From an uncultured Verrucomicrobiae bacterium (GTDB taxonomy: Bacteria; Chlamydiota; Chlamydiia; Chlamydiales; Rhabdochlamydiaceae), in assembly GCA_963818965.1 (NCBI GenBank), contig CAWFUG010000011.1:64001-128000 (forward strand): a stretch of 64,000 nucleotides of DNA, read 5' to 3'. The translations under genes were made by a program, and so were the position numbers. The stretch's first letter is position 1. Each line of letters starts with the position of its first letter. Below the pieces are notes generated by a model, which did not search any database, had not been told where the DNA came from, and worked only from the letters and a program-made list of their open reading frames with translations. Positions 8,308 to 59,823 of this stretch are shown one piece after another.

Positions 8308-8476
8308 TATACCCCGCGCGCTTAGGAATGGTGCATTTGAGCGCGTCAAAGCCCCGCGATTCCACGATCGAAGAGGGGGTCTGTATTTTTCTTCAATACA
8401 GGCCCCCTCTTCGATCGTGGAATCGCGGGAGCTGATCAAAGGCTCAAATGCACCATTCCTAAGCGCGCGGGGTATA
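8308..8476. mobile_element. palindromic MITE family A, subfamily A1, intergenic copy
   Basis: 169 bp from TATA to TATA with long terminal and internal inverted repeats; core homologous to the copies at 53942 and 59046. Confidence 0.92.
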
Positions 8477-44343: not shown

Positions 44344-44383
44344 TATACTGCGCCCGGTCAGGAATTGCGAATTTGAGCTGCGT
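44344..44383. mobile_element. solo left arm of MITE family A2
   Basis: TATACTGCGCCCGGTCAGGAATTGCGAATTTGAGC identical to 59046-59080. Confidence 0.85.
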
Positions 44384-44443
44384 GAAAGCTCCCGAAGCCC
44401 GATTTTGCAGCAACTTAGAATTTTTAAAGGGGGAGGGCCAAAA

Positions 44444-50896: not shown

Positions 50897-52274
50897 ATGC
50901 TCTTTCTGTCGATCGCACAACCTGAGTCAATTCCACATACTCCTCATGAGACAGTCGGCCTTGAGCTGCGGCTAGATCTTTTTCAAACTATTGATACAGA
51001 GCACATTAAGAACTTACTCCAAAACACCACCCATCCTGTTCTCTTAACCCTGCGCAAGACCTCTCAAGGGGGAAAGTTTCGAGGAACAGAGCGGGAAAGA
51101 GAAGGGCTGATCGAGCAGCTCCTGACCCTAAATCCTCCCCTTTTCGACCTCGAATATGACATGAGACCGGCATTCCTTCAAGAAATGATGCAAAGACACC
51201 CCCTGACCCAGTTTCTCCTCTCTTACCATGATTTTCAAAGCATTCCAGCCGATTTGGAGGAGATCTACCATTCCATGCAAGACCTTCCCGCTTTCAGCTA
51301 CAAAATCGCCGTGAGGGTTCGTTCTACAAATGAAGCGCTTAAGGTACTCCTCTTCGCCAAAAAATATCCAAAAATAAGCGTCGTTTGTATGGGAGCGGAA
51401 GGAGCGTTTGCCCGCGTACTCGGGCCCATTGTCGGAAATCAGATCGATTACGCGAGCGTCGATTCTAAAGAGAAAACGGGGCCAGGACAGCTATCCGAAC
51501 GAGAATTCATGGATATTTACCACTACCCCTCCCTAAACCCTGCCACGGCCATTTATGGGCTCATCGGAGATCCAATTGAACACAGCATCGGACATCTCCA
51601 CCACAACGCCGTTTTTCGAAAACGCAACCAAAACGCTGTCTATGTGAAGATGACCGTCAAACCAGAGGAGCTAGCTGAATTTATCCCTCTTGCAAAAGCA
51701 TTAGGGATGCGGGGGCTCAGCGTGACAGCTCCCCTCAAAGAAGCGATCATCCCTTTTGTCGATGAGTTAGATGACGCCGCACGGCAAATAGGAGCGGTCA
51801 ACACCCTCCTCTTTAAAGAAGGGCGCATCCTGGGAACGAATACAGATGGAGTCGGAGCTCTCGATGCGATTGAAAACAAGCTCCCTGTTTCTGGCAAAAA
51901 AGTGGTGCTTCTCGGCGCAGGCGGCGCAGCGCGCAGCATCGCCTTTGAAGCAAAGAGGCGCGGTGCCGCTGTCTTAGTGCTCAATAGAACCCCTCAGCGT
52001 GCTCAGCAGCTCGCAGCCGATCTCGGCTGCGCAGCAGGAAACCTCGCTGAAGTTCCCGATCGATTACGACATTCTCATCAACTGCTCTTCTCACCCTCAA
52101 GCGATTGATCCAGAGAAGATCTTGCCAGAAACTGTCTCAATGGACGTCGTCTATTCCCCTAAAGAAACCCCCTTTCTCAAAGAAGCCGCATTAAAAAACT
52201 GCTCAATCGTGTACGGAGAGGAGATGTTCTTGAATCAGGCAGCGCGGCAAACAGCTTTTTGGATCGAATCATGA
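50897..52274 (+). pseudogene. aroDE: bifunctional 3-dehydroquinate dehydratase / shikimate dehydrogenase, frameshifted near 52055
   Basis: ELRLD, SYHDF (AroD); SVTAPLKE, GAVNT, NTD, GAGGAA (AroE); DILIN, DVVY.P.ET and GEEMF..QA continue in the +1 frame. Confidence 0.85.
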
Positions 52275-53335
52275 AAAAAATGCTCATTCAGCCCTTCCTG
52301 ACACCGCCTTCTACTGAAATCTATTTCGGGGAAGGTTTTCTCAGAGATGCCGTCACCACATTCTTAGCTCCCTTAAAGAAAAAAGTGGTCATCATCGCCG
52401 ATTCAACGGTTGCAGATCTATACGCCACAGATCTCGCGAAGTGCATCCCTGCCACACTTCTTACAATCGACAGCGGAGAAAAAACCAAGACTCAAGAGAC
52501 AGTGACCCATCTGATCGAACAGCTTTTTACAATCGGTGCAGGAAGAGACACTACTCTCATCGCACTAGGCGGAGGGGTGACGACAGATGTCGTCGGCTTT
52601 GTCGCTTCCATTTATATGCGTGGAATTTCTCTCCTACTCATTCCGACCACTCTTATAGGCTGCGTCGATGCTGCAATTGGGGGGAAAACGGGAATCGACA
52701 CACGCTATGGAAAGAATCTCATTGGAACTATTTACCATCCAAAAGCTGTTTTCATCGACTTGAATACCCTAAAGACCCTTCCTGAAAAAGAATGGCGCCA
52801 TGGTTTTTCTGAAGTTTTGAAAATGGGACTCATTCAGGATCCCTCGATCTGGGAACTCTCTGGAAAAAATAGGAAAGATCCGAACCTTATCCTCAAAGCC
52901 ATTGAAGGGAAAATCACCGTAGTCGAACAAGACCCTAATGAGCACGGACTGAGGCGCATTTTAAACTTCGGACACACGATCGGCCATGCGTTGGAAGCTA
53001 CAGCCCACTATGAAATGCCTCATGGAGAAGCTGTCGCTCTCGGTTGTGTGGTAGAGAGCTATTTAAGTAAAGAGCTGGGTTATCTCTCAGAAAAGGAGTT
53101 TCTGGACATTCAGGAGAAATATGCTTTCTTTTCCCTTAAGTTACCTGAGACTTATAACCGAGACAAACTCTTGAAGGCGATGTCCCACGACAAAAAAAGG
53201 CAAGCGGGAGAAATCCGTTTTGTCCTCATCGATCAGATCGGACATGCGCTCCCCTTTGAAGGGACCTATTGCCGGACTGTTTCGTTAGACCAATTAGACT
53301 CTACGCTCCAGTGGATGGAAAGTACTTACTTATGA
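52271..53335 (+). CDS. aroB: 3-dehydroquinate synthase
   Basis: GGGVTTD, PTTL...DAAIGGKTG, LNFGHTIGHA, HGEAV. Confidence 0.95.
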   Translation: MKKMLIQPFLTPPSTEIYFGEGFLRDAVTTFLAPLKKKVVIIADSTVADLYATDLAKCIPATLLTIDSGEKTKTQETVTHLIEQLFTIGAGRDTTLIALGGGVTTDVVGFVASIYMRGISLLLIPTTLIGCVDAAIGGKTGIDTRYGKNLIGTIYHPKAVFIDLNTLKTLPEKEWRHGFSEVLKMGLIQDPSIWELSGKNRKDPNLILKAIEGKITVVEQDPNEHGLRRILNFGHTIGHALEATAHYEMPHGEAVALGCVVESYLSKELGYLSEKEFLDIQEKYAFFSLKLPETYNRDKLLKAMSHDKKRQAGEIRFVLIDQIGHALPFEGTYCRTVSLDQLDSTLQWMESTYL

Positions 53336-54732
53336 ATTTATTGCAGAGCATTCGAGTGCCCGGTTCGAAAAGCTATACCAATCGCGCGCTGATCATGGCT
53401 GCGCTCGCAAAGGGGCCTGTCGTCTTAAAAAATCCCTTGCATAGCGATGACACTGAGGCGATGATCGATTGTTTAAGAACCCTGGGGGTAGACATTCAAA
53501 CACCCCCCAACCAAATCATCGTCCATGGCCCTGTCAGCCCTATCGCAGACAAGAGCTACCAGTTGTCCGCACGGGATTCTGGCACTACGGTTCGGTTTCT
53601 GTTGGCTTTACTGTGTATTGTGCCAGGCGTGAAGACGATCCAGGGCAGCAAGCGGCTCAATGAGAGGCCCATCACCGATTTAGTGGATGCTTTGCAAGAA
53701 CTAGGCGCCCAGATTGAATATGGCGAGAAAGAAGGAATGCTCCCCGTAACAGTCACTACCTCTTCCCTATCTGGCAATTCTGTTCATCTCAAGAGCGATT
53801 TGAGCAGTCAATTTTGTTCCGCACTCCTTCTCATCTCTCCCTACATCCCACAAGGGCTTACTCTCCATAGGATAGGCCCCACCCTTTCAAAACCTTACAT
53901 CGAGATGACCCTTCGCTGTATGGAAGAATGGGGCGTAAAGGTATACCGCGCCCGGTCAGGAATTGCGAATTTGAGCGCGTCAAAGCCCCGCGATTCCACG
54001 ATCGAAAAGGGGGCCAGTATTGAGGAAATACAGGCCCCCTTTTCGATCGTGGAATCGCGGGAGCTGATCAAAAACTCAAATTCGCAATTCCTGACCGGGC
54101 GCGGTATAATAGCAAAAGAAAACGAGAGTTATTTTGTCCCAGCGGGCCAATGTTATCGGAAAAAAGAGTACGTGATCGAAGGCGATTTTTCGAGTGCCGG
54201 GTATTTTTTTGCCATCGCCGCCTTAATACAGTCGACGATCACTGTAGAAAATTTAAATCCTTTCTCTTTACAAGCAGACCGAAAGTTTTTGGATATTTTG
54301 GCGAAGATGGGAAACGTTATAACCTATGGCGAAAATGAGATCTGTGTCCAAGGAAAACAAATTATTCCCTTAAGTGTGGACATGGAAGACTGTCCCGATC
54401 AAGTCATGACTCTAGCGGTATTAGCTGCCTTTGCAGACGGCGTTACCCACATCTCAGGGGTGCGCTCTTTGCGCTACAAAGAGACAGAGCGCGTTTTAGC
54501 CCTTAAAAAAGAATTGGGAAAAATGGGAATTAAAACAGAGGACACCTACGATACCCTGACGATTTACGGCGGATCTCCTCACGCAGCTGAAATCGACACC
54601 TATAATGATCACAGAATGGCCATGGCTTTTGCTGTTGCTACAATGCGGCTTGAAGGAATGAGCATTCGCCATCCTGAGGTCGTGAATAAGACCTTCCCGA
54701 CCTTTTGGGAAGTTTTAGGGAGTTTGAGATGA
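53332..54732 (+). CDS. aroA: EPSP synthase containing a 55-aa MITE-derived insertion
   Basis: PGSKSYTNR, SGTTVRF, SSQF, KETER, DHRMAM, KTFP; ATGA overlap with aroB. Confidence 0.95.
   Translation: MNLLQSIRVPGSKSYTNRALIMAALAKGPVVLKNPLHSDDTEAMIDCLRTLGVDIQTPPNQIIVHGPVSPIADKSYQLSARDSGTTVRFLLALLCIVPGVKTIQGSKRLNERPITDLVDALQELGAQIEYGEKEGMLPVTVTTSSLSGNSVHLKSDLSSQFCSALLLISPYIPQGLTLHRIGPTLSKPYIEMTLRCMEEWGVKVYRARSGIANLSASKPRDSTIEKGASIEEIQAPFSIVESRELIKNSNSQFLTGRGIIAKENESYFVPAGQCYRKKEYVIEGDFSSAGYFFAIAALIQSTITVENLNPFSLQADRKFLDILAKMGNVITYGENEICVQGKQIIPLSVDMEDCPDQVMTLAVLAAFADGVTHISGVRSLRYKETERVLALKKELGKMGIKTEDTYDTLTIYGGSPHAAEIDTYNDHRMAMAFAVATMRLEGMSIRHPEVVNKTFPTFWEVLGSLR
53942..54108. mobile_element. palindromic MITE family A2 inserted in frame in aroA
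   Basis: 167 bp: 34-bp perfect outer arms, 29-bp perfect inner arms; TA duplication. Confidence 0.95.
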
Positions 54733-55235
54733 ATATCGTTTTGATCGGTTTTATGGGTGCTGGAAAATCGAGCGTAGCAAAGCACTTGAGTCAGCGGATG
54801 GGTCTTCTCCACGTCGAAACAGATGAACTCGTCTACAAAAAAACAGATACCAAAAATATGCATGAGGTATTTGCACAGGGAGGAGAGCTGCTTTTGCGTG
54901 AGACGGAAATTGCCATTGCAAGAGAATACGCAGCGAAAAAAAATCTGGTCCTCTCCACAGGCGGTGGAATCATACTCAATAAAATCGCTCTCGATTATTT
55001 CAAAAATAAGGGTGGGAAAGTGATTTTCTTAAATGCTAGCTTTGCTACCATCGCACAGCGATTGGCAGAAGATGATTCAAGGCCCTTGTTCAAACAAGCC
55101 GCAAGCGCAAAAGAGCTCTACGATTTTCGGTTCCCCCTTTATTTGAATTACGCAGATGAAGTGATCGACGTCGATTCCCTATCGGTAGATGAAATTGTAG
55201 AGAAGATCAAAGAAAGGGTGGCAGATGGCCTCTAA
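54729..55235 (+). CDS. aroK: shikimate kinase
   Basis: IGFMGAGKS, R..E, STGGG, RPL. Confidence 0.93.
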   Translation: MNIVLIGFMGAGKSSVAKHLSQRMGLLHVETDELVYKKTDTKNMHEVFAQGGELLLRETEIAIAREYAAKKNLVLSTGGGIILNKIALDYFKNKGGKVIFLNASFATIAQRLAEDDSRPLFKQAASAKELYDFRFPLYLNYADEVIDVDSLSVDEIVEKIKERVADGL

Positions 55236-56319
55236 TTTTTTTGGACAGATTTTTCGCATCACCACCTTTGGGGAATCGCATGGGCCAGGCATCGGCGTCG
55301 TCATCGATGGGTGCCCTGCCGGATTGCCTTTGACAAATCAAGATATCGAAGAACAATTGGCCTTTAGGCGGCCCGGTACAAATGCCTACACTTCCCCTCG
55401 GAAAGAAGCAGATCTAGCCGAAATCCTCTCTGGAGTCTTCGAGGGGAAGACCACAGGGGCACCGCTGACCATTTTCATTCGCAATAAAGATGTAGACAGC
55501 TCCTCCTATGAAGCCATTAAAGAGCTCTATCGTCCGGGCCACGCCAACTTCACCTACCTAGAAAAATATGGGATCTTCGACTATCGAGGAGGAGGGAGAT
55601 CCTCCGCAAGAGAAACCGCAGCCCGCGTTGCAGCGGGTGCAGTGGCGAAAAAACTACTGAAGAGGCACCAGATCGAATGCACAGCCTTTGTCTTTGAAAT
55701 CGGAGGGATCGCCATCCCCGATCCCGATCTAGCGCATTTGGACACTTTGCGAGAAAAAACCTATGCGAGTCCGATCTTTTGTCCTGACGAAAAAACCGCA
55801 CAGGCGATGATGGAAAAAATCGCTCAAGCCAAGGAAGATAACGATTCGGTAGGGGGTATCGTCGCTTGTGTCGCCCATGCCCCAGTCGGATTGGGAGATC
55901 CCGTCTATTGCAAACTAGAAGCGCTGCTGGCCTTTGCCATGCTCTCCCTGCCAGCGACTAAAGGGTTTGAGATTGGGTCGGGGTTTGAAGCGGCTAGAAT
56001 GAAGGGATCTGAGCACAATGATCTCTTCACTACCGACAGCGAAGGGCACGTTCATACAGCTAGCAACTGCGCAGGGGGGACCTTAGGGGGAATCTCTACC
56101 GGCTCCCCTCTTTTCTTCAAAGTCGCCTTCAAACCCCCCTCGAGCATTAAAAAGCCCCAAGCGACGGTTAATCTCAAGGGAGAAAAAGTCACCCTTCAAC
56201 TTCCAGAAACGGGGCGACACGACCCTTGTGTCGCCATTCGCGCCGTGCCCATCATCGAAGCGATGACAGCGCTCGTCCTCGTAGATGCGCTCCTCATGAA
56301 CAGAAGTTCAAAACTGTAA
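55225..56319 (+). CDS. aroC: chorismate synthase
   Basis: TFGESHG, RPGHA, GGGRSSARET, GRHDPCV. Confidence 0.96.
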   Translation: MASNFFGQIFRITTFGESHGPGIGVVIDGCPAGLPLTNQDIEEQLAFRRPGTNAYTSPRKEADLAEILSGVFEGKTTGAPLTIFIRNKDVDSSSYEAIKELYRPGHANFTYLEKYGIFDYRGGGRSSARETAARVAAGAVAKKLLKRHQIECTAFVFEIGGIAIPDPDLAHLDTLREKTYASPIFCPDEKTAQAMMEKIAQAKEDNDSVGGIVACVAHAPVGLGDPVYCKLEALLAFAMLSLPATKGFEIGSGFEAARMKGSEHNDLFTTDSEGHVHTASNCAGGTLGGISTGSPLFFKVAFKPPSSIKKPQATVNLKGEKVTLQLPETGRHDPCVAIRAVPIIEAMTALVLVDALLMNRSSKL

Positions 56320-56428: not shown

Positions 56429-56598
56429 TATACCCCTTCCACCTCAATCGTAACCACAAGCAAACCGATTAAAAGCCTCAAAATTCGAACCAAAGGTCGG
56501 GGTCAATATTGAATTTAATATTAACCCCGACCTTTGATTCGAATTTTGAGAACTTTTCATTCGGTTTTCTTGGGTACGATTGAGGTGGAAGGGGTATA
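56429..56598. mobile_element. palindromic MITE family B, 170 bp, TA-flanked
   Basis: TATACCCCTTCCACCTCAATCGTA / TACGATTGAGGTGGAAGGGGTATA ends plus a long inner hairpin. Confidence 0.9.
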
Positions 56599-56693
56599 TA
56601 CCCCGCCCGGTCAGGAATTGCGAATTTGAGCTGCGTGGGATCCCAGGGCTTATGTACCGCTTAAATGCACCACCCTCAAGTGCACGGGGTATA
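56597..56693. mobile_element. internally deleted hybrid family A element (A2 left arm, degenerate A1 right arm)
   Basis: TATACCCCGCCCGGTCAGGAATTGCGAATTTGAGC...GCTTAAATGCACCACCCTCAAGTGCACGGGGTATA. Confidence 0.8.
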
Positions 56694-56766: not shown

Positions 56767-56881
56767 CGACATTTGTCATTCCTATGGTATAAAAAAACCA
56801 CAGGTCTCCATGTCATAGGATTGACATTTGTCATTCTTATGGTATAGAATTAGGCTAAAATCTCATACCACAGGAATGACA
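56767..56881 (+). promoter_or_regulatory. promoter with three operator-like 17-bp repeats
   Basis: TGTCATTCYTRTGGTAT at 56774, 56829 and inverted at 56865; TTGACA-18 bp-TAGAAT at 56821-56850. Confidence 0.7.
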
Positions 56882-58353
56882 TGAAAAAGGCGGTAGTAAG
56901 ATTTGATGCAAAGCAAAGGAAGTTCATAGGAAGAAAAAAAGAACTGGAAGATCTGAATCTTTTACTAAAAAAAAGAACATCTAGTCTTGTTGTTATTCGA
57001 GGGCGAAGGCGCGTAGGAAAGAGTCGTCTTATCCAAGAATTTGTAAAAGATAAAAATAGCTGGACCTTCGTCGGCCTTCCCCCGATTAAAATGACTAGAG
57101 AAAGACAGATCGATGAATTTTTATCACAACTTTCCCAAAACTTGAAAATACCGAAAATCCAACCTAGCAATTGGAATTGGAGCGAATGTTTTTCTTTTTT
57201 GGCCGCTCATGCACAAAAACAAAAAATAGTGATCGTTTTTGATGAAATCTCGTGGATGGGTTCAGAAGACCCTGACTTTCTAGGCCACTTAAAAAATGCC
57301 TGGGATCTCTATTTTTCTGCTAATCCAAATTTGATCCTGATTCTATGCGGTTCCGTATCAATCTGGATAGAGGAAAATATTCTCAGCAATACGGGATTCG
57401 TTGGGAGAGTCTCCATCGATATGAAATTAGAAGAACTTTCGATATCTCAAAGTCAAGAGTTTTGGGGAAGACAAAAGGATAGACTCAGTTCTTATGAGAA
57501 ATTTAAACTCTTAGCTGTAACAGGAGGAATCCCCAAATATCTTGAGGAAATTATCCCAGAGCAAACTGCTGAAGAAAACATCCAAAGACTATGCTTTCAA
57601 TCCAATGGGCTATTATATCGCGAATATGACCAAATATTCTCAGATCTTTTTTCAAAGCGAGCTAAAACTTATAGTCATATCATAAGTACGTTAAACAAAA
57701 AGGCTTTAACCTTAGACGAAATTTGCAAAATTTTGAAGAAGGAAAAAAGTGGCAACATCTCAAAATATTTGCACGGTCTAATTTCCGCTGGTTTTGTATC
57801 AGAAGATGGAACATGGAATTTAAAGGAAGAAAAAGCATCCCAACTTAAAAAATTTCGACTTAAAGATAACTATATCAGATTTTACTTAAGATATATTGAG
57901 CCCAATAAGAGAAAGATATCGAAAAATTTTTTTGATTCAGGAGTGCTGAATTTGCCGGGGTGGGAATCGATTATGGGGTTGCAATTTGAAAACTTGGTTG
58001 TGAATAATCTTAAAGAGCTCTGCAAAATTCTTAAAATTGATACTCAGGATATAGTCATGGAAGGGCCCTTTTTTCAAAGAGCCACAAAAAGACAAAAAGG
58101 ATGCCAGATTGACCTCCTGATTCAAACTCGACACAATACCCTTTACCTTTGCGAAATTAAGTTTAAAATAAGACAAGTCGACACATCGATTATAGAAGAG
58201 ATTGAGAGAAAAATGAGCAGCATTTCAATTCCAAAAAGTTATTCAATTAGAACTGTTCTTATTCATGTTAACGGAGTAAGCCAAAATGTTGTAGAAAGCG
58301 AGATATTCAGCCATATCGTAGACTTTTCCAATTTCTTAACTTTGCAAATTTGA
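56881..58353 (+). CDS. archaeal-type ATPase with wHTH and C-terminal PD-(D/E)xK-like (DUF234-type) domain
   Basis: FIGRKKEL, GRRRVGKS, VFDE, LCGS, TGGIPKYL, QIDLL, CEIKF; AT-rich. Confidence 0.88.
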   Translation: MKKAVVRFDAKQRKFIGRKKELEDLNLLLKKRTSSLVVIRGRRRVGKSRLIQEFVKDKNSWTFVGLPPIKMTRERQIDEFLSQLSQNLKIPKIQPSNWNWSECFSFLAAHAQKQKIVIVFDEISWMGSEDPDFLGHLKNAWDLYFSANPNLILILCGSVSIWIEENILSNTGFVGRVSIDMKLEELSISQSQEFWGRQKDRLSSYEKFKLLAVTGGIPKYLEEIIPEQTAEENIQRLCFQSNGLLYREYDQIFSDLFSKRAKTYSHIISTLNKKALTLDEICKILKKEKSGNISKYLHGLISAGFVSEDGTWNLKEEKASQLKKFRLKDNYIRFYLRYIEPNKRKISKNFFDSGVLNLPGWESIMGLQFENLVVNNLKELCKILKIDTQDIVMEGPFFQRATKRQKGCQIDLLIQTRHNTLYLCEIKFKIRQVDTSIIEEIERKMSSISIPKSYSIRTVLIHVNGVSQNVVESEIFSHIVDFSNFLTLQI

Positions 58354-59823
58354 AGTCCTGAGAGAGCACGCATCTAAAATAACGAGACACTCGACGTGCA
58401 TCGTCTGGGGGAACATGTCGAAAGGCTGCACGGTCGTAACGCGGTACCCCGCTTGGCTTAAAAATTGCAAGTCGCGCGCCAAGGTCGCTGGGTCGCAGGA
58501 GATGTAGGCGATCCGGTGGGGCTTAAGCACCACGAGCGCCTCGAGGAAAGGGCGCTCACATCCTTTTCTGGGGGGATTGATGAGGGCGAGATCGATCTGA
58601 TTCAGCTCTGCGATCTTTTCTTCTGCGAGACCACAGATGAAATGAGTGTTTTCGATCCCATTGCGCTGTGCATTCTCTTTTGCATCGACGATCGCTTCGG
58701 GGACAGATTCGATGCCGATGACCTCTTTCGCCTTTTGTGCAAAGAAGAGAGAGAGCGTTCCCACGCCGCAATAGGCATCTAAGACCCTTTCTCGACCCGT
58801 CAACTCACTGAGCTCCAGCGCCTTTTTGTAAAGCGCCTCCGCTTGAGGCGGGTTGACCTGAAAAAAGGAAGCGGGAGAGACTTTAAAATAGAGACCACCT
58901 AGAGTCTCTTCGATCCAGCCCTGTCCGATGAGCGTGCGAAATTCCCGTCCTAAGATCACATTTGTCTCGAGTGGGTTGATGTTCTGCACCACCCCTTTAA
59001 TCTCAGGACTTGTGTGGAAGATCTCTTCTGCGAGCTGAGTGATGCTATACTGCGCCCGGTCAGGAATTGCGAATTTGAGCGCGTCAAAGCCCCGGGATTC
59101 CACGATCGAAAAGGGGGCCTGTATTTCCTCAATACTGGCCCCCTTTTCGATCGTGGAATCGCGGGAGCTGATCAAAGGCTCAAATTCGCAATTCCTGACC
59201 GGGCGCAGTATGGACTCATTTGAAGTGACGAGGATGACGAGGATCTCATTTTTATGGACGGCTGTTTTGATCAAAACATGCTTAATCCCTAATTCTGAAT
59301 GCTTCTCTAGAATGCGCTGTATGGAGCTGAGCGCCTTTTCTCCTAGAGGACAGTGGATGGCACAATTTTCGATCTCGATGAGATCGTGGGTGTTGCGCGC
59401 GTAGAGCCCTAAACGGTTCTCTTTACTGACGGGTAACTGGATCTTATTGCGATAAGACAAGGTTTGAGGCGAAGCGATACAGGGCAGCACCTCCGCATCG
59501 ATCTTCGCGATGCGCTGCAACGCATCGACGACGCGCATGCGTTTGGCCTCTAACTGCTTGGAATAACTCAGATGCATCAGCTGACACCCGCCACACCGTC
59601 CGAAGAGCGGACAAGGGGGCTCGGTACGATCGGGAGAGCGATTTAAGAACTCCACCACACGAGCGCGTGCAAAGCTCTTTCTGCGCTCATAGATTGCAGC
59701 GCGCACCCTTTCACCGGGTAGGGCCCCTTCGACAAAGAGGGTGTAGCCATCGACCTTACCGACCCCCTCTCCATGGATGCCTAGGCGTTCGACCAGGACT
59801 TCTATTTCTTTACTCTCTTCCAT
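58336..59823 (-). CDS. rlmD: 23S rRNA (uracil-C5)-methyltransferase RlmD containing a MITE-derived insertion
   Basis: TRAM domain, CPLFGRCGGCQ, SFFQVN, DAYCGVG, NPPRKG, YISC, DMFPQT. Confidence 0.95.
   Translation of the reverse strand: MEESKEIEVLVERLGIHGEGVGKVDGYTLFVEGALPGERVRAAIYERRKSFARARVVEFLNRSPDRTEPPCPLFGRCGGCQLMHLSYSKQLEAKRMRVVDALQRIAKIDAEVLPCIASPQTLSYRNKIQLPVSKENRLGLYARNTHDLIEIENCAIHCPLGEKALSSIQRILEKHSELGIKHVLIKTAVHKNEILVILVTSNESILRPVRNCEFEPLISSRDSTIEKGASIEEIQAPFSIVESRGFDALKFAIPDRAQYSITQLAEEIFHTSPEIKGVVQNINPLETNVILGREFRTLIGQGWIEETLGGLYFKVSPASFFQVNPPQAEALYKKALELSELTGRERVLDAYCGVGTLSLFFAQKAKEVIGIESVPEAIVDAKENAQRNGIENTHFICGLAEEKIAELNQIDLALINPPRKGCERPFLEALVVLKPHRIAYISCDPATLARDLQFLSQAGYRVTTVQPFDMFPQTMHVECLVILDACSLRTSNLQS
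59046..59212. mobile_element. palindromic MITE family A2 inserted in frame in rlmD
   Basis: 167 bp, near-identical to 53942-54108 with the central 17 bp inverted; right end TATG instead of TATA. Confidence 0.95.

Follow-up and report, generated by a model that had tools for sequence, protein, structure and literature searches.

The systems closest to the element described here are short palindromic repeats of other bacteria, which are compared as set out in the available parts of the cited sources. Rickettsia palindromic elements (RPEs) are likewise hairpins (~150 nt) of an intracellular bacterium that lie in frame in unrelated conserved genes and give rise to peptide inserts; their mobiliser is given as unidentified (PMC10969869, PMC2229807). 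ERIC, IRU and RU-1 of enterobacteria share with the present element TA duplication, TATAC-like ends and folding as one long hairpin, and ERIC is also mostly intergenic, with occasional in-frame fusions and an unidentified mobiliser (PMC2759123, PMC2229807). The movement of ERIC- and RPE-type elements was called open in a 2007 review (PMC2229807). TA termini and TA duplication are further common to RUP of pneumococcus, which is mobilised by IS630, and to the Correia/NEMIS repeats; NEMIS, like the present family, has a species with an open frame that enters genes and a stop-rich species that remains in intergenic DNA (PMC2229807). REPINs are also non-autonomous hairpins with motifs at fixed spacing, arms that are variable yet complementary, compensatory changes, and insertion beside existing copies (PMC3116915). 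YPAL/RU-2 of Yersinia is similar in length (167-168 nt), in being GC-rich and in carrying an open frame of ~56 aa (PMC2759123, PMC2229807).

The window, which is the whole 64,000-nt stretch of DNA analysed, carries a hairpin element within aroA (Table 1). We read this feature as a recent insertion of a non-autonomous hairpin MITE from a family that ranges across the chlamydial order (probability approximately 0.8). General MITE characters were found, the element being short, multicopy, bounded by terminal inverted repeats and without a transposase of its own. The behaviour is already known from Rickettsia, and the repeat family itself appears to be new. New here are its order-wide range, the control provided by its subfamilies, an empty site, and the anatomy of core, ends and targets. 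A chlamydial host had been proposed in the initial annotation, and the names of homologs and the titles of motif matches agreed with this.

Table 1. Coordinates of the aroA element, its parts and related features in the window.
Feature	Position	Strand	Remarks
Full-length MITE copy, subfamily A1	53942..54108		167 nt, TATA to TATA
Left outer arm, aroA element	53942..53975	+	34 nt, target TA included
Right outer arm, aroA element	54075..54108	-	34 nt, 100% complementary to left arm
Inner hairpin, aroA element	53987..54061		With TATT/AATA cap
Short linker and left half of family-conserved core	53976..53995	+	AAAGCCCCG.G.TT, ~41 nt from end
Long linker and right half of conserved core with bulged A	54053..54074	+	AATCGCGGGAGCT
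aroA, EPSP synthase, 466 aa	53332..54732	+	Element is residues 205-259
Operon aroDE, aroB, aroA, aroK, aroC	50897..56319	+	Gene order as in relative G015
Second full-length A1 copy, in frame in rlmD	59046..59212		ORF 58336-59823, minus strand
Intergenic tandem 3' of aroC	56429..56693		Subfamily B (170 nt) and partial A1, common terminal TA
Intergenic full-length A2 copy	8308..8476		169 nt
Half-element remnant, A1	44344..44407		

Arms and linkers of the aroA element were re-measured, and the same 34/11/29/17/29/13/34 geometry from TATA to TATA was obtained as had been reported initially, the outer and inner arms being separated by linkers of 11 nt and 13 nt. The inserted unit comprised a 163-nt core with duplicated TA on either side, a net gain of 165 nt. 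Its 17-nt centre folded on through a mismatch, a 5-bp stem and a loop, giving inner arms of 35 nt (53987-54021 and 54027-54061) with one mismatch and a 5-nt loop. The folding energy was -139.7 kcal/mol (z = -20.8), which was equalled by 0 of 200 shuffles. Comparison of the element with Rfam gave sub-threshold hairpin matches only and no family at gathering score.

The aroA open reading frame matched TIGR01356 at 419 bits (cut-off 287). Excision of 165 nt in silico restored the frame, as had been predicted, giving a stop-free protein of 411 aa that reads ...WGVKVIAKENESYFVP... across the junction. Orthologs were expected to show a clean 55-aa gap, and homologs without the segment were indeed found: the gap was clean against 18 of 18 relatives whose AroA spanned the site (19 aligned). 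A wider alignment was made from the best 120 of 856 matches, minus one fusion, and the insert was private to one of these 119 sequences. The inter-anchor loop was 9-14 residues long in the 103 homologs having both anchors, compared with 68 in the insert-bearing AroA. Conserved columns were retained at 141 of 142 positions, the sole change being I to L; 59 of 100 near-complete homologs carried 0-1 such changes. The insertion site corresponds to residues 216-221 of E. coli AroA. In an AlphaFold2 model (85-sequence alignment; mean pLDDT 87.6) only residues 212-261 fell below 50, the predicted fold matched EPSP synthases, and the insert sat in a beta-hairpin between strands 205-208 and 265-269. 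The earlier claims of intact AroA motifs and of a loop position were both upheld, the loop being a variable beta-hairpin loop by the 119-sequence alignment and the model.

In aroA the insertion fell within a beta-hairpin loop that was already variable in length. The resulting loop is probably surface-exposed and away from the active site. We think it probable that translation of the 55 residues yields a disordered loop and that AroA most likely still works, perhaps less well; the insert would then be passively tolerated rather than serve a function. As a precedent, a guanylate kinase carrying an RPE is described as being translated and active, with an altered affinity (PMC2229807). The tryptic peptide proposed for detection of the insert is common to RlmD, MenC and other carriers, so its detection could not prove translation of AroA.

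Around aroA, aroB, aroK and aroC were intact in the window, and no second aroA was found in the source genome. The fused aroDE (50897-52274) shifts frame near 52055-52065, where the relative G015 has one intact 458-aa ORF; the break may be a real lesion or an assembly error. Because aroDE is frame-broken, the shikimate pathway may be under relaxed selection, and after a recent insertion decay of aroA could not yet show. The AroA of the window is of the GSKS/SSQF type, common to relatives G015 and G027. Among the relatives compared (L012-L030), most, including the same-genus genome G001, have a divergent AroA with PPSKS/DSQPVS motifs. Judging from these sequences, operon replacement or differential loss is possible.

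Profile and BLAST searches of the source genome yielded 193 merged element loci (20 kb in total), or 192 once one mirror copy was dropped, of which 104 had both ends. Many copies were eroded, and 63 were full-length (164-173 nt). Net length was a multiple of three in 48 of these 63. Five subfamilies were set by the first bases of the copies. Contig C5, a 94%-identical duplicate of part of C12, is without the copy seen at C12:76253 and has a single TA there, so the mobile unit is a 163-nt core plus a TA duplication. The multicopy, TA-duplicating MITE proposed in the initial annotation was thus supported, TA duplication resting on this one nucleotide-level empty site plus the 55-aa protein gaps in AroA, RlmD and MenC. 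Tandem copies of different subfamilies with a common terminal TA were observed at C1:178232, C8:290537, C11:419356 and C11:120429. Since tandem copies share the terminal TA, elements insert at the ends of earlier ones.

Twelve 47-nt deletion derivatives (15 codons net; e.g. C8:205413, C9:192779, C9:400402) were also present in the source genome. In four of them long open frames extended to either side, and another lay just after a signal peptide. These forms may have arisen by repeated deletion or may be a mobile mini-form.

Automated placement of the 63 full-length copies assigned 12 in frame in genes, 40 to intergenic positions and 11 as broken. When the broken calls were checked by hand, the copies in sulP and yhcG were really in frame (sulP is also frame-shifted in this genome), four sat where the gene end itself is doubtful, and another five rows, representing four sites, were mid-gene breaks. 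The in-frame call upstream of namZ was doubtful by hand, and the number of full-length copies in frame in genes was taken as about 13. As 75% of TA sites in the genome fall in long ORFs, genic copies are strongly depleted. Four mid-gene sites were broken by an element, and a genic position is therefore no proof that a copy is tolerated.

The rlmD copy is read in a different phase from the aroA copy and gave a 53-55 aa gap against 3 orthologs. MenC showed a clean 55-aa gap against 4 of 4 orthologs, and RecC a clean gap of about 53-60 aa against 5 orthologs. Together with the other genic copies, these gaps substantiate the suggestion that the element invades proteins in frame in the manner of RPEs. 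Orthologs of PepF were too distant to give a clean gap, and in PlsX a 23-aa remnant replaces host residues with no clean gap. Short in-frame derivatives (35-86 nt) occurred in msrAB, an ABC permease, methyltransferases, plsX and others; the many shorter in-frame copies suggest that inserts are perhaps trimmed later by deletion. Two in-frame copies (L062, C11:165270; L049, C9:46272) lay in or just after the apparent signal peptides of an FAD-linked oxidase and a collagen-like protein.

Comparison of subfamilies A1 and B made the source genome a natural control, in which an open-frame subfamily enters genes and a stop-rich one stays out. The mean number of open frames out of 6 was 2.6 for A1 and 0.55 for B. 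Copies were in frame in genes in 7 of 13 cases for A1 and 0 of 22 for B (Fisher p 0.0003), or 1 of 22 for B when judged by hand (p 0.002), the copies being not fully independent. The near-absence of stop-rich B from genes indicates that inserts are probably translated, not spliced out. Within genes, copies persist where phase and frame are open.

The range of the family was determined with a covariance model built from 22 copies (E up to 1e-5; 18 candidates scored per genome). Matches were obtained in at least 48 of 150 other genomes of the order, and the best match was recovered in 27 of 29 genomes fetched, all with the same anatomy. The core pattern occurred in at least 119 stretches of GTDB genomes; among the 119 listed, 88 had chlamydial titles, 12 were titled 'bacterium' only and 19 belonged to other groups. 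For most of the tested stretches with non-chlamydial labels, the flanking genes were as near to source-genome proteins as those of chlamydial-labelled stretches, and these labels are likely to be mislabelling. Distribution across genomes was patchy, and a DNA search of G001, from the same genus, yielded no element.

Among 88 closed copies listed outside the source genome, 3 were in frame and flanked on each side by 60 codons or more; these lay in rlmD-like, recC-like and biotin-ligase-like genes (named by eye). Independent in-frame copies in other genomes were located at L176:884-1048, L186 and L167. The outside rlmD-like and recC-like copies lay in the same genes as in the source genome, at other sites. 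Heavy in-frame invasion is thus a trait of genomes with a stop-poor variant. Net length was a multiple of three in 55 of 80 copies outside the source genome, and full-length sizes peaked at 164, 167 and 170 nt across genomes (loci L075-L223), although the majority of these copies are without an open frame. Selection for triplet length was considered; against it, other lengths are masters in several genomes and 76 of the 88 outside copies had 0-1 open frames. In-frame protein-invading repeats, known mainly from Rickettsia, are extended to Chlamydiae, recurring in several genomes. In practice, core genes of chlamydiae that carry such inserts will be prone to distorted annotation and phylogenies.

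DNA searches with the element gave no match in E. coli genomes and a chance 25-nt match only in plasmids; a core-pattern search of viral contigs gave no match. A protein search with the insert returned proteins of this genome only, which is weak evidence. The initial annotation had not recognised the family as described, and no description was found in the literature searched, most subscription papers lying outside that search. The main text of PMC11602168 contains no 'Chlamyd'; its supplement may list chlamydial MITEs.

Arms were 98% complementary within a copy and 61% identical between copies (34 non-B copies). Changes on both sides occurred in 44 of 60 arm pairs, compared with 16-27 in slid controls, the structure being derived from the same alignment. 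The conserved part comprised the core with its bulged A, starting 40-43 nt from either end, plus the TATT/AATA cap. The inner mismatch states flip relative to the linkers (GG/TT 7, CC/AA 5, GG/AA 3; 22 parsed of 51), a pattern suggestive of nested inversions. Target preference goes with end type: TAGT-ended copies lay at CTAG in 15 of 21 cases (background 3%) and TATA-ended copies in 1 of 59, with adjacent TA favoured in 17 of 59. Insertion sites in the source genome were YTAR in 46 of 88 cases against a background of 26%, a weak symmetric preference. In a family so diverged, whose core is fixed while ends and targets vary together, the question of mobility becomes testable by comparative genomics.

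These characters also separate the family from the described systems. Nearly half of RPEs are given as genic and their arms are listed as 12 bp, compared with about one-fifth of full-length copies and near-perfect 34-bp arms here. The chlamydial family uses several frames and phases, and its TA duplication is backed by the empty allele. Comparison of five insert peptides with NCBIfam gave 0 families at E up to 10. TIGR01045 (RPE1) had no match in the source genome, but its positive control was silent too. The family is set apart from RPE by peptide comparison and by the published descriptions.

ERIC, given as 127 nt in the available text, differs from the 160-171 nt of the chlamydial family. 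It carries a similar ..CCC.GGAGCTT motif ~44 nt from one end, facing the other way relative to that end. The covariance model scored ERIC at 5.5 bits (E 7.6). The core matrix ranked two stretches of E. coli 2nd and 6th of 59,924 windows, with scores lower than that of any family member; we take these to be ERIC copies, which are unannotated in the record and were identified via the sequence in PMC2759123. The weak 14-nt motif apparently shared by ERIC and the core is a lead only. REPINs are described as extragenic and clustered beside a RAYT gene (PMC3116915), whereas the chlamydial family duplicates TA. RUP repeats resemble the ends of IS630-Spn1 (PMC2229807), whereas no IS630 locus with element ends was found here and the arm sequence varies between copies. 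YPAL, compared by the description in the papers, is without TA termini and has internal repeats and variable 3-26 bp duplications. The family appears to work like RPE and ERIC, yet showed no homology to either in the tests made.

Searches for a cognate transposase covered four transposase families in incomplete genomes. PF01797 (the absence of which is a further difference from REPINs), PF13358, PF00078 and PF13586 had no match in the source genome (88% complete). In relatives, neither 50 transposase loci nor 14 half-core loci yielded a transposase with element ends, and 20 DDE_3 loci of relatives gave no covariance-model match. Among 30 Y1 loci of relatives there was 1 short match, ~670 nt from the Y1 match; the Y1 genes were not element-flanked. 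Y1 was present in 33 of 48 element-positive and 40 of 101 element-negative genomes, DDE_3 in 24 of 48 and 25 of 102, and 8 of 48 element-positive genomes had neither. As both rise alike and kin are not independent, co-occurrence points to neither.

Several candidate sources were rejected. Facing half-elements on C4 were a mirror artefact, ORFs between neighbouring copies in the source genome were ordinary genes by eye, and an apparent 4.8-kb element in genome G065 was two separate full copies. The IS4-like and IS110-like repeats of the source genome have different ends. The former occur as three near-identical 1.2-kb copies (C1:260607-261808, C2:149485-150685, C9:457884-459084) and the latter as two 1.7-kb copies with an ORF in two frames (C2:48810-50536, C9:448489-450216); both were named by eye.

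Mobilisation may depend on an enzyme acting in trans, which would recognise the conserved bulged core (40-43 nt from each end) rather than arm sequence. The enzyme would measure from the core to the terminal TA, cut there and integrate at TA, and a hairpin or cruciform intermediate would keep the arms complementary. IS630 elements prefer CTAG targets. TA duplication and the CTAG preference favour an IS630-like DDE transposase, which we propose tentatively, at somewhat below even odds. The unconstrained arm sequence and the conserved bulges speak for HUH-type recognition, an argument also made for REPINs (PMC3116915); an HUH/Y1-type enzyme is a more doubtful candidate, and another or a host enzyme is doubtful to the same degree. 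Of the earlier proposal of IS630/Tc1-type chemistry with TA duplication, the duplication stood and the CTAG preference of TAGT-ended copies fits; the chemistry itself was not borne out, as the source genome gave no PF13358 match and no transposase locus with element ends was found. We speculate that the order-wide hairpins are recognised by structure, with co-changing ends and targets and a fixed core about four helical turns from the ends, are moved by an enzyme outside the usual MITE transposases, and perhaps have an ancient recognition motif in common with ERIC; we regard this combination as unlikely. If true, hundreds of diverged natural variants would be available for finding what mobilises elements of the ERIC/RPE type, as would a collection of core enzymes with recent natural peptide insertions.

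Other explanations of the aroA feature were weighed against recent insertion of a tolerated MITE. The insertion may be real and the allele inactive or badly impaired, the shikimate operon decaying and the open frame being an accident of length. Strong mRNA hairpins can stall ribosomes or be cut by RNase III, and one of -140 kcal/mol could have either effect here; moreover, aroDE is frame-broken where G015 is intact, and an element breaks four mid-gene sites elsewhere in the source genome. An RNase III-type effect is reported for Correia elements in the available text of PMC10969869. As the conserved columns of AroA are kept as well as in most homologs, aroB, aroK and aroC are intact with no second aroA found, the loop tolerates length change and the aroDE break may be a sequencing error in an assembly with artefacts, we judge decay to be unlikely, though it deserves weight. 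A normal AroA could also be made if the hairpin were removed from the message by splicing or ribosome bypass. The perfect hairpin does bring the two junctions together, and excision leaving one TA restores the frame. Stop content would then be irrelevant, yet B is almost absent from genes and A1 is not, and Rfam gave no family at gathering score; removal from RNA is very improbable.

Copies might instead be kept for host use, for example to adjust the stability of mRNA along operons, a role proposed for ERIC and Correia, where such effects are reported (PMC10969869, PMC2229807, in their available parts). The intergenic position of most full-length copies and the conservation of structure across the order would fit. 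Structural conservation is equally explained by mobility, however, and all orthologs examined have an empty aroA site, many copies are eroded and the distribution is patchy, extending to none in G001 by DNA search; host use seems improbable. The element could, finally, be an artefact of assembly, produced by long-read fold-back or a chimera. Contig C4 forms a self-palindrome of 21.6 kb, parts of C12 or C8 recur in C5, C6 and C7 at 90-99% identity, and the assembly contains fold-back artefacts plus strain variants or paralogous blocks. Among the matches listed from three sequencing runs (X1-X3; low cover), no contig spanned the aroA junction, and one small-share DNA run had short identical pieces, none of those listed lying across it; no RNA run was among the matches listed. 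An artefact would not account for dozens of distinct copies of fixed length with asymmetric linkers and conserved mismatches, for the family in at least 48 other genomes, or for gaps of about 55 aa in several proteins, and is the least probable of these explanations.

A second repeat family with an ACCACAGAG motif was seen at C1:118867-118997 and on C2 near 50500, one copy being TATA-ended. It adjoins the IS110-like element and nests with the hairpin family. Within the window, an AT-rich gene for an archaeal-type ATPase with DUF234 lies between aroC and rlmD (56881-58353) and has element copies on either side, at 56429 and 59046.
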